DNA of 26,817 bases from a virus (lineage: Duplodnaviria; Heunggongvirae; Uroviricota; Caudoviricetes). How positions within the stretch are numbered: position 1 is the stretch's first letter; each line of letters opens with the position of its first letter. The stretch lies in IMG/VR virus record IMGVR_UViG_2778261176_000016; one strand, 5' to 3'. The notes under the pieces are model-generated. The model searched no databases, had not been told where the DNA came from, and was given only the letters and a program-made list of their open reading frames with translations. The translations under genes were made by a program, and so were the position numbers. Shown piece by piece: positions 541 to 24,258 of the stretch.

Positions 541-1578
541 TTAACGCTTATCCGCCACCAGTTTGAGCGCGTGTTCCAGCACATTAATGTCTGCACCCGC
601 TTTATGGGCATTTTCACTTAAATAACGCCGCCACTGCCGCGCGCCAGGAATACCCTGGAACAAGCCCAGCATATGCCGGGTAATATGGCCGAGATACGTA
701 CCCTGGCTGAGTTCACGCTCAATGTACGGATACATGGCGCGCACTACCGCCACCGGATCGGCATCGGTATCCGAGGAACCAAAAATCTCTCGGTCTACCG
801 CCGCCAGAATCCCCGGATTCTGATACGCCTCGCGCCCGACCATCACGCCATCCATATGTTGCAAATGCGCTTTAGCTTCTTCCAGCGACTTGATACCACC
901 GTTAATCGACATCGTCAGATGCGGAAAGTCACGCTTCAGTTGATACACACGCGGATAATCGAGCGGCGGGATCTCACGGTTTTCTTTCGGACTTAACCCA
1001 GAAAGCCAGGCTTTACGTGCGTGGATGATGAACATCTCACACTCACCTTTGCCGGAAACGGTGTTGATGAAATCGCAGAGAAATTCATAGCTGTCCTGAT
1101 CATCGATGCCAATACGCGTTTTCACCGTCACCGGAATCGACACCACATCGCGCATCGCTTTCACGCAGTCGGCAACCAGCTGCGCATTACCCATCAGACA
1201 CGCACCAAACATGCCGTTCTGCACCCGGTCAGACGGGCAGCCGACATTCAGGTTGATCTCATCATATCCGCGCGCTTCTGCCAGCTTCGCACACTGTGCC
1301 AGCGCCGCCGGATCGCTACCCCCGAGTTGCAACGCTACCGGATGTTCTTCTTCACTGTACGCCAGGTAATCACCTTTACCGTGAATAATCGCCCCTGTGG
1401 TCACCATTTCGGTATACAGCAACGTATTGCGGGAAAGCAGACGCAGGAAATAACGGCAATGTCTGTCCGTCCAGTCAAGCATAGGAGCAATGCTAAACCG
1501 AGAATTCCAGTAAACACCAGTTTTTTCAGGCATCACGCTGGTTTGATTAATTTTTTGTGTTTCATGATTATCGTGCAT
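541..1578 (-). CDS. dusA: tRNA-dihydrouridine synthase A
   Basis: 345-aa ORF with the Dus signature ([31 protein letters not shown]) and ATG at 1578-1576. It is divergent from the integrase 88 bp away, the arrangement expected for dusA-targeting elements. Confidence 0.9.
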
Positions 1579-1666: not shown

Positions 1667-2764
1667 ATGGCGTACTATAACATAGAGAAACGACTAAAAT
1701 CCGATGGCACACCACGCTATCGCTGTAATGTGATTATCAAAGAAAAAGGTGTTATCACTTACAGGGAAAGCAAAACATTCCCTAAACATGCTCATGCCAA
1801 AACATGGGGCACACAGAAAGTGATGGAATTAGATCTATATGGCATTCCATCATCAAATGCAGTTGACGGACTTACAGTCCGTGACTTACTACACAAATAT
1901 TTAAATGACCCAAATGCCGGAGGTAAAGCAGGCCGTACTAAAAGATATGTGCTGGAACTGCTTATGGATAGTGACATCTCCGCGATCAAACTATCTGAAC
2001 TGACAGAAAATGACGTAATTGAACATTGCAGGCTAAGAAACAACGCTGGTGCAGGTCCAGCTACAGTTAGCCACGATGTTAGTTATCTTGGCAGTGTTCT
2101 GGATGCTGCCAAACCTGTATATGGAATTAATTACACATCAAACCCAGCAAAAGCCGCTCGTCCATATCTACTTAAACTTGGTTTAATTGGTAAATCAAAT
2201 CGTCGTAATCGTAGACCGGCATCTGATGAACTGGACATGCTCATTGAAGGTCTTCAACAACGATCTACACATAAATGCTCAAAAATTCCGTTCGTTGATA
2301 TCCTCAAATTTTCTGTGTGGTCATGTATGCGAATCGGTGAAGTATGCCGATTACGATGGGAGGATCTCGATCAGGAACAAAAATCCATACTCGTAAGAGA
2401 TAGGAAAGATCCACGTAAAAAGGAAGGCAACCATATGAAAGTAGCCTTGCTTGGGGAAGCCTGGGATATCGTCCAACGACAACCCAAAAAATCAGAATTC
2501 ATTTTTCCATATAACAGCACTTCTGTTACTGCGGGATTCCAGAGGGTAAGAAGCAAATTAGGTATTAAAGATCTGCGATACCATGATTTGCGTAGAGAAG
2601 GGGCAAGTCGCTTATTTGAGGCTGGTTTTAGTATTGAGGAAGTCGCCCAGGTTACAGGGCATCGTTCATTAAACGTGCTATGGCAGGTATATACCGAACT
2701 GTATCCGAAATCTTTACATAATCGTTTTGAAGAGCTCCAAAGGAGCAGAAATAAGACCTCTTGA
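1667..2764 (+). CDS. int: Tyrosine-type site-specific integrase (dusA-targeting class)
   Basis: 365-aa ORF; C-terminal catalytic region contains R...HDLRR...GH...Y (DLRYHDLRREGASRLFEAG...VTGHRSLNVLWQVYTELYP). GAGG Shine-Dalgarno 8 nt upstream of the ATG. Position next to the dusA 5' end. Confidence 0.9.
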   Translation: MAYYNIEKRLKSDGTPRYRCNVIIKEKGVITYRESKTFPKHAHAKTWGTQKVMELDLYGIPSSNAVDGLTVRDLLHKYLNDPNAGGKAGRTKRYVLELLMDSDISAIKLSELTENDVIEHCRLRNNAGAGPATVSHDVSYLGSVLDAAKPVYGINYTSNPAKAARPYLLKLGLIGKSNRRNRRPASDELDMLIEGLQQRSTHKCSKIPFVDILKFSVWSCMRIGEVCRLRWEDLDQEQKSILVRDRKDPRKKEGNHMKVALLGEAWDIVQRQPKKSEFIFPYNSTSVTAGFQRVRSKLGIKDLRYHDLRREGASRLFEAGFSIEEVAQVTGHRSLNVLWQVYTELYPKSLHNRFEELQRSRNKTS

Positions 2765-2825: not shown

Positions 2826-3074
2826 ATGCGTATTGAAATCTGCATAGCCAAAGAAAAAATGACTAAAATGCCAACCGGTGCTGTGGATGCGTTAAAGGAA
2901 GAATTAACCCGACGCATCAGTAAACGTTATGACGATGTAGAGGTGATCGTAAAAGCCACCAGCAACGATGGCCTTTCTGTTACACGCACCGCAGATAAGG
3001 ATTCTGCAAAAACTTTTGTTCAGGAGACTCTGAAAGATACCTGGGAATCTGCTGACGAGTGGTTTGTTCACTAA
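2826..3074 (+). CDS. dinI: DinI-family DNA-damage-inducible protein
   Basis: 82 aa; MRIE.IAK...GA.DAL..EL.RRI...LSV...[14 protein letters not shown] matches the DinI family throughout. AGAGGGA Shine-Dalgarno. Confidence 0.85.
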
Positions 3075-3322
3075 TTAACACGTAAAATCGGTAACGGCTG
3101 GAAATCATTCAATACTCGCACTATCGAAAGTTCGCCAGCCAACCGCAGCGCGTTCTTGCATACGACGTGGCTGCGGTCTCAACTCCGTCCCCCACCAATC
3201 ATGATTGGGCAGTACCAGTACAGCACTAGTAAAAACTGGAAATAAGCAGTCTCAGCAAAATACCGGCCAGACGGTGAGAAGACAAAAAAGATTCGCAAAG
3301 TAGCCGCGGCCCTTAGTGACAT

Positions 3323-3348
3323 GAAATCCCGCTATACGGGCTTTTTTG
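3323..3348 (+). terminator. Weak intrinsic terminator (CCCG-CTATA-CGGG + TTTTTTGT)
   Basis: Read directly: short 4-bp GC stem followed by a T6 run, about 250 nt downstream of the dinI-like gene. Confidence 0.35.
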
Positions 3349-3422
3349 TATCTGCACACGATTGATTATTAGGTCCGTATAGCTAATAGTGGTCTTAACC
3401 TACATATAGAATCAGAGACTTT

Positions 3423-4118
3423 ATGAAAAAGGAAATACTCAAGGCTCTTTGCCCTACATGCGGTGGGTTACGTAACTGCACTGTGCATGGGAAGCTAACC
3501 ACTAGCTGGGAGGATTCCCAATATCCAGTTTATGGGTACCATTACCATCACCTACTCCAATGCAATGGCTGTGATACTGTCTTCTATCACCACAACGAAC
3601 ACTTCAGTGAGCATACTACCCACGAATATCGTGATGGTGAATTTGTAGAAACGCCTATAGATATGATCACTACCTATCCTGCCGCTGAAACATTTCAAGC
3701 TCCGATATGGTTATCCAAGCTTGAATCAGTTGATCGTCAGCTCTTTCAAATATTTAATGAAATGTATTCTTCATATACTTCTGACCATTTCATTCTTTCG
3801 TCCATCGGTTTACGGACGATTTTTGATCGAACTGCTGAACTGTTACAAATTCACCCCGGTTTGCCGCTTGGTGAAAAAGTTGAAAAATTAAAACAAGATG
3901 GAGTCATAGGCGACACTGAGGCATGCGTTATATCTTCAGTAATTGATGCAGGAAACGCCGCCGCACATCGCAGTTGGAGCCCGAATAAAAGTGAGTTCGA
4001 ACAAATGCTAGAAGCTATAGAAAGTTTTGTCCAAAGAACTATCTTGGGCAAAAAATCACTTGAACATATAACCAAACAACTCCCACCTCGGGTTACAAGA
4101 CCTAAAAATAGTGCATAA
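3423..4118 (+). CDS. Hypothetical protein: N-terminal 4-Cys zinc ribbon (CPTCGG...CNGC) and C-terminal helical domain with a GNAAAH motif (possibly DUF4145-like)
   Basis: 231-aa ORF in an AT-rich segment between the SOS module and the tail-fibre end. The only long plus-strand ORF besides int and dinI. No family confidently recognised. Confidence 0.7.
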   Translation: MKKEILKALCPTCGGLRNCTVHGKLTTSWEDSQYPVYGYHYHHLLQCNGCDTVFYHHNEHFSEHTTHEYRDGEFVETPIDMITTYPAAETFQAPIWLSKLESVDRQLFQIFNEMYSSYTSDHFILSSIGLRTIFDRTAELLQIHPGLPLGEKVEKLKQDGVIGDTEACVISSVIDAGNAAAHRSWSPNKSEFEQMLEAIESFVQRTILGKKSLEHITKQLPPRVTRPKNSA

Positions 4119-4144: not shown

Positions 4145-4540
4145 TTATGGTTTACTTGCTACAGGGAATTTTTTATACACCGTTGAAATACCCAGATCAT
4201 AAATCAGTGCGACTTGCTGCTGATATATTCCCGATTCAATCAACCTGCCAGCCTGCTCCCATTGTTCTACTGTCAGCTTTGGCTTTCGCACACCGTTCCT
4301 CCCTTCTTGTCGTGCTGCGGCAAAGCCCGCCCTAGTACGTTCGACAATAAGCTCTCGCTCCATTTCAGCCAAGGCACCCATCACATGAAAGAAAAAGCGC
4401 CCCATTGGTGTGCTGGTATCAATTAAATCAGTCAGACTACGAAAGTTGATGCCTCGTTCGCGCAACTCCTCAACCAGAATGACCAGATGCCGCATACTAC
4501 GCCCCAGCCGATCCAGCTTCCAGACAACCAGTGTGTCACC
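4145..4540 (-). pseudogene. N-terminally truncated Gin/Pin/Cin-type serine DNA invertase
   Basis: From GDTLVVWKLDRLGRSM.HL...ELRERGINFRSLTD.IDTS.PMGRFFFHVMGALAEMERELI.ERT.AG..AAR..G..GGR.PKLT...WEQAGRL the ORF matches Gin-type invertases. The first ~55 residues, including the catalytic Ser region (VRVSTxDQ), are absent and replaced by unrelated sequence. Confidence 0.6.
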
Positions 4541-4583
4541 TGCCGATAATGTCACAACTGACTGGCGGGTGGAATTAATGCTT

Positions 4584-4706
4584 GGTGATATCAGCAGTAC
4601 AGATAAAGAAAAACTATCTGCCTGGATAGAATACAAAAAAGAAGTAAAAGCCGTCGACACTTCGACGGCACCTGAGATTAGCTGGCCTGAACTGCCGGAG
4701 GCGTAG
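4584..4706 (+). pseudogene. Remnant of an inverted second tail-fibre-assembly gene (C-terminal ~40 codons only)
   Basis: Plus-strand reading ...GDISSTDKEKLSAWIEYKKEVKAVDTSTAPEISWPELPEA aligns without gaps to the C-terminus of the intact Tfa on the other strand (...GRLKDEELAQYNLWLDYLDALDLVDTSSAPDIEWPTPPAV). The two are convergent with overlapping 3' ends. Confidence 0.45.
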
Positions 4707-5085
4707 GCCATTCAATATCTGGCGCACTGGAGGTATCCACCAGATCCAGTGCGTCCAGGTAATCCAGCCACAAATTATATTGCGCCAGTTCCTCGTCTTT
4801 CAGACGACCAATAGCCGCTTTACCGGGCCACTGCTTGCTGTTAATAAAATCATTTGCAGCACGTATGCGTCCTTCTTTTTCGAGTTCTGCTTCCTGGATT
4901 AACTGTTCTTTAGTTTTCTCAGGTTCGGGAGGGGCTGTGAAATTATTTCCGTCATAGATCCATCCAATATCAACTGCAACACCAGAGATATTAACTGCCT
5001 TAAAATCGGCAAACATATCTCCTGCACCATCCCAAACAACGATATTAACAACAATATTGTTTTTAATTAGTGCGTATCTGTTCAT
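4678..5085 (-). CDS. tfa: Tail fibre assembly protein (Tfa/U-type chaperone)
   Basis: N-terminal IKNNIVVNIVVWDG and C-terminal VDTSSAPDIEWP motifs. Start taken at the ATG at 5085, which overlaps the tail-fibre stop (TAATG). Confidence 0.8.
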   Translation of the reverse strand: MNRYALIKNNIVVNIVVWDGAGDMFADFKAVNISGVAVDIGWIYDGNNFTAPPEPEKTKEQLIQEAELEKEGRIRAANDFINSKQWPGKAAIGRLKDEELAQYNLWLDYLDALDLVDTSSAPDIEWPTPPAVQAS

Positions 5086-23937: not shown

Positions 23938-24258
23938 CTAAATCAGATCACCAATGTATTTTGCACTAATTGAAATTTGCATCTGAGGCATTCCGACCAC
24001 AGATCCATTTAACAGGTAATCACGTCCTCGTTCCTGCAAAGAAAGACTCAATTCAAAGTTCTTTACCCCAGGGAAAACCGAGGTGACATTTAAATCATGC
24101 TGCGATACGCGCAGAATAAGTTGGCTACCGTCAATTTTTCCCTGATACGTAAAACCAAAATCTCCGCCGTTTACTGCATTGTTTTTGACAACTACGGTAC
24201 CATTACCAAAATCACGTTGATTGCTTCTGAAAACAACAAAATAGATACCATCTTTCAT
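23938..24258 (-). CDS. Hypothetical protein (cargo gene between the lysis and packaging modules)
   Basis: 106-aa ORF in a visibly AT-rich stretch; beta-rich composition, no signal peptide, no family recognised. Confidence 0.55.
   Translation of the reverse strand: MKDGIYFVVFRSNQRDFGNGTVVVKNNAVNGGDFGFTYQGKIDGSQLILRVSQHDLNVTSVFPGVKNFELSLSLQERGRDYLLNGSVVGMPQMQISISAKYIGDLI

Follow-up and report, generated by a model that had tools for sequence, protein, structure and literature searches.

The closest described system is RAZR (PD-T7-4), a validated single-protein abortive-infection RNase in which a Cys4 zinc ribbon is followed by a DUF4145/HEPN domain (Vassallo 2022; Zhang 2026). PD-T7-4 was found in a functional screen in 2022 as a protein of about 219 aa from E. 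coli UMB1727 (RRL46918.1, positions 34-694 of its contig); integrases are frequent neighbours of its homologues (Vassallo 2022). The mechanism of RAZR was solved in 2026 (structures PDB 9Y6U and 9Y9C). Its ZFD is the trigger sensor, a variable part that determines specificity, and binds ring-shaped phage proteins, namely Gp77 of SECphi27 and the T7 portal. RAZR assembles into a 24-mer, cleaves ssRNA and aborts the infection. R146 and H154 are both essential, and the R146A exchange abolishes defence (Zhang 2026).

The fusion of a zinc ribbon to DUF4145 had already been listed among the known DUF4145 architectures. About 20% of DUF4145 members lack the conserved Arg-His motif, as do some other HEPN families; c2405 and MtlR are examples of families that keep the His without the Arg or conserve the motif in part (Anantharaman et al. 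2013). No catalytic activity is known for MtlR and some other HEPN families. HepS and Tha are constitutively made abortive-infection proteins, which become active when a phage structural protein binds to them directly. With these two examples, triggering by phage structural proteins emerges as a repeated feature of solo HEPN proteins carried by prophages.

In this study, we analysed a stretch of 26,817 nucleotides (hereafter the window), an E. coli prophage integrated at dusA. A gene on its plus strand, at 3423-4118, had been proposed to be a candidate single-gene anti-phage defence or accessory gene, and the best candidate in the window for a previously undescribed function. We consider the odds slightly in favour of the gene encoding a RAZR-like sensor fused to a HEPN effector, which would act as a stand-alone, prophage-carried abortive-infection immunity protein.

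A cargo gene of a dusA prophage

The gene at 3423-4118 is a complete ORF with an ATG start, encoding 231 aa plus a stop codon, as had been claimed. Its product is identical to RefSeq WP_001514810.1, labelled 'DUF4145 domain-containing protein', exact copies of which are encoded by at least 1000 contigs. When 1.84 billion representatives were searched exhaustively with a profile, 2708 related proteins were found at E <= 1e-3 and 289 clusters (50% identity) at E <= 1e-30. Nearly all of the best 150 relatives are 215-260 aa long and are matched across both domains. The AlphaFold2 model has a mean pLDDT of 84 overall and of 93 in the N-terminal domain. In view of the RefSeq identity, the number of contigs, the 289 clusters, which are nearly all full length, and the pLDDT values, the ORF is a genuine gene and not a chance ORF. 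The GC content of the gene is 41.5%, compared with 57% for the structural module and 51.5% for the entire window.

The order of genes is dusA (541-1578, minus strand), which is the integration site; the tyrosine integrase of the prophage (1667-2764, plus strand); a dinI-like gene (2826-3074, plus strand); the DUF4145 gene; a serine-invertase ORF (4145-4711, minus strand) convergent with it; and then the tail-fibre assembly, tail-fibre and baseplate genes. The gene had been placed between dinI and the tail-fibre end. This is correct on the dinI side, but the immediate 3' neighbour is the invertase ORF, which is truncated at its 5' end and lacks the catalytic N-terminus, and the tail-fibre assembly and tail-fibre genes come only after it. 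The SOS control ascribed to the dinI-like gene is supported by two perfect LexA boxes of the form CTGT-N8-ACAG (2767-2782 and 2795-2810) directly upstream of it. LexA control of the DUF4145 gene itself was considered and rejected, since the boxes lie only upstream of dinI and none is found near the gene.

Homology to prophages in which the slot is empty stops at position 3176 in blastn comparisons, and the non-coding region at 3177-3422 (plus strand) is specific to the cassette when compared with SEC470, BS15R-A and JNE21-003. A terminator-like hairpin, CCCG-CUAUA-CGGG followed by U6, is found there at 3328-3347 on the plus strand (fold energy -9.6 kcal/mol, z = -2.3). It would insulate the DUF4145 gene from read-through out of dinI. 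Our own scan gave two weak sigma-70-like promoter candidates at 3362-3412 on the plus strand, TTGATT-17-AATAGT and CTAATA-18-TAGAAT, each with 8 of 12 matching positions; a promoter-prediction scan of the region upstream of the gene gave none at the threshold of the tool. We infer a constitutive, low expression in the lysogen. No upstream regulatory region is conserved across genera; DNA homology is confined to the ORF.

The slot was then surveyed in 5426 complete E. coli genomes, counting the integrase-dinI module at a coverage of at least 80%. The module is present in about 723 genomes and the DUF4145 gene in 34 of these genomes; copies of the gene are at least 99.7% identical, and their flanks are 96-98% identical. 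The slot is empty in the SEC470 and BS15R-A prophages. In JNE21-003 it holds a class I SAM-dependent methyltransferase gene (L013, 6851-7519), and in strain 7784 three DUF1076/NleG-type effector genes (L014, 6569-8566). The slot content is thus variable among related dusA prophages, and the description of the gene as a lone occupant of an integrase-proximal cargo slot was borne out. These alternative occupants indicate that the slot after dinI is a general cargo hotspot, which receives virulence genes as well as defence-type genes.

The invertase ORF travels with the DUF4145 gene in intact versions of the block. In the window, it matches only positions 59-144 of the Resolvase model plus HTH_7, and the region of the catalytic Ser is lost. 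Collinearity with the intact locus of E. coli LR-46 stops at 4552 (window positions 4553-4681 lie beyond this point), and about 1.29 kb is gone in comparison with LR-46, comprising the 5' end of the invertase together with an alternative tip of the tail fibre and the gene for its assembly. The switch for tail-fibre inversion appears to be locked. In E. coli SX12, the integrase-dinI-DUF4145 block occurs twice, in the chromosome and in a 55.6-kb 'plasmid' record (NZ_CP142783.1, 4485-5265; NZ_CP142787.1, 12008-12788). The 55.6-kb record may be an excised circular prophage, which would mean that the element is active.

Domain architecture and conserved residues

The protein consists of an N-terminal zinc-binding beta domain (aa 1-86; 3423-3680, plus strand), a linker (aa 87-96; 3681-3710, plus strand) with near-invariant P94 and W96, and a C-terminal domain with the HEPN fold (aa 97-219; 3711-4079, plus strand). 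The translation contains the two predicted CxxC pairs, C10/C13 and C47/C50, and each of the four Cys residues is kept in 153-163 of 166 aligned relatives; two further cysteines, C19 and C168, are not conserved. Family-wide conservation therefore upholds the zinc-binding part of the predicted N-terminal zinc ribbon. The domain is, however, larger than a minimal ribbon: in the predicted structure, about 86 residues form an antiparallel five-strand beta-sheet bearing the two CxxC knuckles. This sheet, which we propose to be the sensor, has no neighbour in the PDB.

A stretch at aa 40-67 (window positions 3540-3623) is rich in His (H40, H42, H43, H56, H57, H60, H64 and H67). It is kept among enterobacterial members and not across the family, and may serve as a further site for metal binding or as a surface for binding that is specific to this lineage.

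The C-terminal domain is an all-alpha helical bundle of the HEPN fold, as expected from the predicted helical domain of DUF4145 type. The tentative assignment to DUF4145 proved correct in the Pfam profile search, in which aa 115-199 matched positions 4-87 of the 88 positions of PF13643 with 39 bits, above the gathering cut-off of 23.1. All ten longer relatives tested also pass this cut-off. The PHROG profile phrog_1305 matched over the full length (E = 5.3e-43; aa 2-225 to profile positions 11-224 of 226). Searches of NCBIfam, Rfam and the sequences of solved structures gave nothing informative for the gene or its product.

Conservation was analysed in the alignment of 166 relatives, the mean column identity of which is about 32%. 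R131, H182 and W185 are present in all 166 sequences, R183 in 162 and Y115 in 157; position 135 is D in 160 and E in the other 6. These residues lie mainly in two motifs. The first is a conserved helix motif, G129-L-R131-T-I-F-D135-R136 (3807-3830, plus strand). The second, A176-G-N-A-A-A-H182-R183-S-W185 (3948-3977, plus strand), contains the GNAAAH motif pointed out in the original prediction (G177 to H182) and is the putative active-site motif, on the basis of its conservation and of the mapping of H182 to RAZR H154 through the Pfam model. The conservation of R131, H182 and W185, together with near-invariant R183 and D135, looks like selection on an active site. The two domains differ in variability: the mean pairwise identity is 29% in the zinc domain and 38% in the HEPN domain, and the zinc domain is the less conserved one in 89% of pairs.

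The R-x(4-6)-H motif of HEPN proteins, which takes the form R-x7-H in RAZR and DUF4145, is incomplete in this family: H182 is kept, and the Arg is gone. The H-8 position, which corresponds to the canonical HEPN Arg according to the mapping to RAZR R146 through the Pfam model, is I174 in the window protein (codon 3942-3944, plus strand). Across the 166 relatives, it is occupied by T (57), V (55), I (45), A (8) or S (1) and never by Arg, and no Arg is found anywhere at positions 171-177; in 162 of the relatives, an Arg (R183) instead stands directly after the His. The Arg that is essential in RAZR has given way here to Ile, Val or Thr, so that the domain cannot be taken to be an active RNase. 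The missing Arg is the main uncertainty of our analysis. Its role may be taken over by R183 or R131; alternatively, the domain may have no nuclease activity.

The latter case would correspond to a HEPN domain that is dead or repurposed. The protein would then act by binding alone, for example as a regulator of the prophage that binds nucleic acid or protein, or as a decoy or poison subunit directed against RAZR-like immunity of the host. The loss of the canonical Arg from every aligned relative would be expected in this case, and the HEPN families without Arg or with a partial motif, such as c2405 and MtlR, set a precedent. The gene is also carried by a phage, and phrog_1305 is annotated as 'DNA binding protein', which we counted against the defence reading; no experimental basis was, however, found for this label. 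The absolute conservation of H182, R131 and W185 and the near-absolute conservation of R183 have the look of an active site and not of a scaffold. Furthermore, the family also occurs on plasmids, on islands and in defence-type neighbourhoods without phage genes. We therefore regard a dead or repurposed domain as unlikely.

It seems similarly improbable that the HEPN site has been rebuilt without Arg from His182, Arg183, Trp185, Arg131 and Asp135 and is combined with a structurally unprecedented zinc-sheet sensor for a class of phage or plasmid trigger other than the rings of RAZR, or that the protein is a pseudo-nuclease with which prophages poison RAZR-type immunity of the host.

Some members deviate from the common architecture. 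Four proteins of 406-507 aa (P0078, P0105, P0108 and P0164) have an extra N-terminal region of about 180-280 aa with weak matches to Lar_restr_allev-like zinc ribbons, which suggests that the long members carry a duplicated or additional zinc sensor module. Conversely, WP_172966218.1 from a Cupriavidus pauculus plasmid (172 aa; L022, 2890-3408) consists of the HEPN part alone, without the zinc domain. Its motif is GHATIHRG, likewise without Arg at H-8. The arginine-less site would thus predate or outlive the zinc fusion.

Relatives on other mobile elements

The family spans mobile elements of alpha-, beta- and gamma-proteobacteria, and the dominant context in Enterobacteria is the end of a prophage. 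In Enterobacter and Citrobacter, proteins of 67-70% identity are encoded at prophage ends; the tails of these prophages are P2-like, lambda-like and P22-like. DNA similarity to these prophages is limited to the ORF, and the neighbouring genes are other morons (DinI, UmuDC-like, SRAP, Gtr and Macro genes). Among 50,697 phage genome records, no homologue was found, which we counted against the defence reading.

Outside these prophages, a member is found on a mobilizable island of Cedecea, and a distant one near partition genes on a repABC plasmid of Brucella. Other plasmids also carry members, among them pMT1 of Y. pestis, whose protein is 40.9% identical to the window protein (NC_004835.1, 78466-79188; L020, 6001-6723). 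The pMT1 member is flanked by IS100, IS256 and IS1618, with the gene for phospholipase D (murine toxin) about 5 kb away, and recurs in dozens of Y. pestis plasmid records. A Burkholderia member adjoins Gabija-like genes, PRTase and RT. Other members adjoin an ABC-ATPase with PLD and HNH, VapC with an AAA-S8 pair, or SymE. One distant member, P0188, does not fit the mobile-element pattern and was counted against the defence reading. It lies on a metagenomic contig (L027, 8001-8699), overlaps the 3' end of gyrB by 8 nt and has housekeeping-like surroundings.

Several of these loci bear on the possibility that the gene serves the maintenance or competition of selfish elements, as a solitary stabilising toxin or as an anti-plasmid immunity protein like Ishtar1, a DUF4145 protein that blocks a conjugative plasmid. 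Members are found on plasmids beside repABC and partition genes, one is carried by pMT1, and some lie beside the toxins SymE, PemK and VapC. However, no conserved partner gene of the toxin-antitoxin type was found across about 15 neighbourhoods, and no antitoxin recurs across the sampled loci. The domain order of Ishtar is opposite to that of the window protein and its second domain is different, and prophage ends dominate in Enterobacteria. A role in maintenance or competition is thus rather improbable.

Comparison with RAZR and proposed function of the protein

Like RAZR, the window protein has a Cys4 zinc domain in its N-terminal part, which a linker connects to a C-terminal HEPN domain of DUF4145 type with a conserved His of the catalytic type. 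The zinc domain is the less conserved half of either protein, and both families lie near integrases on mobile elements. Given the same domain order and genomic setting, the window protein shares the architecture and the genomic habit of RAZR.

The differences appear to lie in the zinc domain and in the active site. The zinc ribbon of PD-T7-4 (residues 9-59) is of the TFIIS/Cren7 type and comprises about 50 aa, whereas the window protein has an 86-aa five-strand sheet. Residues were mapped indirectly through the Pfam model (PD-T7-4 87-175 = model positions 1-90) with an accuracy of about two residues. H154 of RAZR corresponds to H182, and R146 to I174; no Arg lies within the mapping error of about two residues. 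In place of the catalytic R146, the window family has Ile, Val or Thr, and it has a conserved set of its own (R131, D135, R183 and W185).

Profile searches also kept the two families apart. The PADLOC profile of PD-T7-4 (PDLC04109) did not match the window protein at E <= 10, and among 100 relatives it gave 4 weak matches (best E 0.021); it is the most frequent weak PADLOC match among the relatives. Neither phmmer with the window protein nor two family profiles found the RAZR chain among the PDB sequences at E <= 10; that the copy of the PDB contained 9Y6U and 9Y9C was shown with a Gp77 probe. With a 100-sequence profile, a word-indexed search at E <= 10 retrieved only members of the same clade. 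Relaxed tblastn searches of plasmids and phages for RAZR gave only clade members or a zinc-less relative. We therefore concluded from the missing PADLOC and PDB matches, the apparently different zinc domain and the absence of an R146 equivalent that, at the sequence level, the window family is separate from the RAZR family.

A true RAZR orthologue, which would form a large ring around portal or Erf-like recombinase rings and cleave ssRNA non-specifically, is hence very unlikely: the comparable length (231 aa and about 219 aa), the shared domain order and effector, the location of PD-T7-4 homologues beside integrases and the weak PD-T7-4 matches among relatives speak for it, but the PD-T7-4 HMM and the PDB chain are missed, the zinc domain appears as an extended sheet of about 86 aa and the R146 equivalent is absent.

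Other known systems resemble the window protein in part. HepS (from the Gifsy-1 prophage) and Tha (from S. aureus prophages) are, like the prophage-borne window protein, solitary HEPN proteins; unlike it, they have no zinc domain and belong to different HEPN families. HepS is a tRNA anticodon nuclease with a canonical RX4-6H motif (R100-H105), the Arg of which the window protein lacks. In BxaP (BREX-associated) and Ishtar1 (anti-plasmid), a DUF4145 HEPN domain is the presumed effector of a single-protein defence, as we propose here; in these proteins, however, the DUF4145 domain is at the N-terminus and its partner is a HEAT-like or beta/alpha domain, with no zinc ribbon. Within generic DUF4145 (PF13643), the window protein is a member by its Pfam score that has kept the His and lost the Arg. 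DS-38 (DefensePredictor; WP_001313577.1), a validated E. coli defence protein, also combines HEPN with zinc fingers. It was rejected as a member of the same family on its sequence (Table S8): the protein has 366 aa and the reverse domain order, with an N-terminal canonical HEPN domain (RHRNRVVH) and a C-terminal array of several zinc fingers.

We return to the RAZR-like immunity protein, which we prefer among the readings given above. An anti-phage role of the single gene is the best supported one, since the same architecture has been experimentally validated in RAZR/PD-T7-4. We also counted for defence the conservation that resembles an active site, the variable cargo slot, the mobility of the ORF, the sensor-like variability of the zinc domain, the occasional defence neighbours and the precedent of the validated systems BxaP, Ishtar1, HepS and Tha. 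The window protein had no match among the DefensePredictor table rows listed, which was counted against it, and PADLOC (v2), one of the checks proposed with the original prediction, gave no match for the protein either. The defence candidate put forward there thus agrees with RAZR in architecture and context, on which the proposed defence function is based.

The proposed immunity protein would work as follows. In the lysogen, a weak promoter of its own would drive its synthesis, and the protein would stay inactive. Its HEPN domains probably form dimers or higher oligomers, by analogy with other HEPN RNases. Upon superinfection, the variable zinc-beta domain would bind a component made by the incoming phage, and the binding would shift the oligomeric geometry of the HEPN domains. 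A composite site around His182 and its conserved partners would then cleave RNA, and the cleavage would lead to a shutdown of translation and to an aborted infection.

The claim of a previously undescribed function was overstated. The fusion was catalogued in 2013, the defence was validated in 2022 and the mechanism was solved in 2026, and the RefSeq label of the protein already names DUF4145. The gene does not represent undescribed biology; it belongs to a kind already characterised by RAZR, within which it represents a separate family whose active site is non-canonical and whose sensor appears to have a fold of its own.

If the gene provides active defence, it would represent a second widespread family in the class of zinc sensors fused to a DUF4145 RNase, in which RAZR now stands alone among the validated systems that we found, and the PADLOC v2 annotation would be missing this family. 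A comparison of its sensor fold and arginine-less site with those of RAZR would reveal what is general in ring-activated HEPN immunity, and the family would serve as a test of whether a HEPN RNase can dispense with the R of Rx4-6H. It would also account for a variable cargo gene that about 5% of a common E. coli dusA prophage lineage carry. If the gene has no phenotype, it would be one more DUF4145 moron.

Two other ORFs of low GC content were observed in the window. A 106-aa ORF of 39% GC near the lysis genes (23941-24258, minus strand) matches phrog_2483 (unknown function), and its score of 26.7 bits with Pfam GrlR, a negative regulator of T3SS, is just below the cut-off of 26.8. A 173-aa ORF of 34.5% GC (11195-11713, minus strand) lies inside the tail module of 57% GC. 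It has no Pfam or PADLOC match and matches phrog_5586 (unknown function) with E = 1e-84, and it is a candidate for a second moron in the window.
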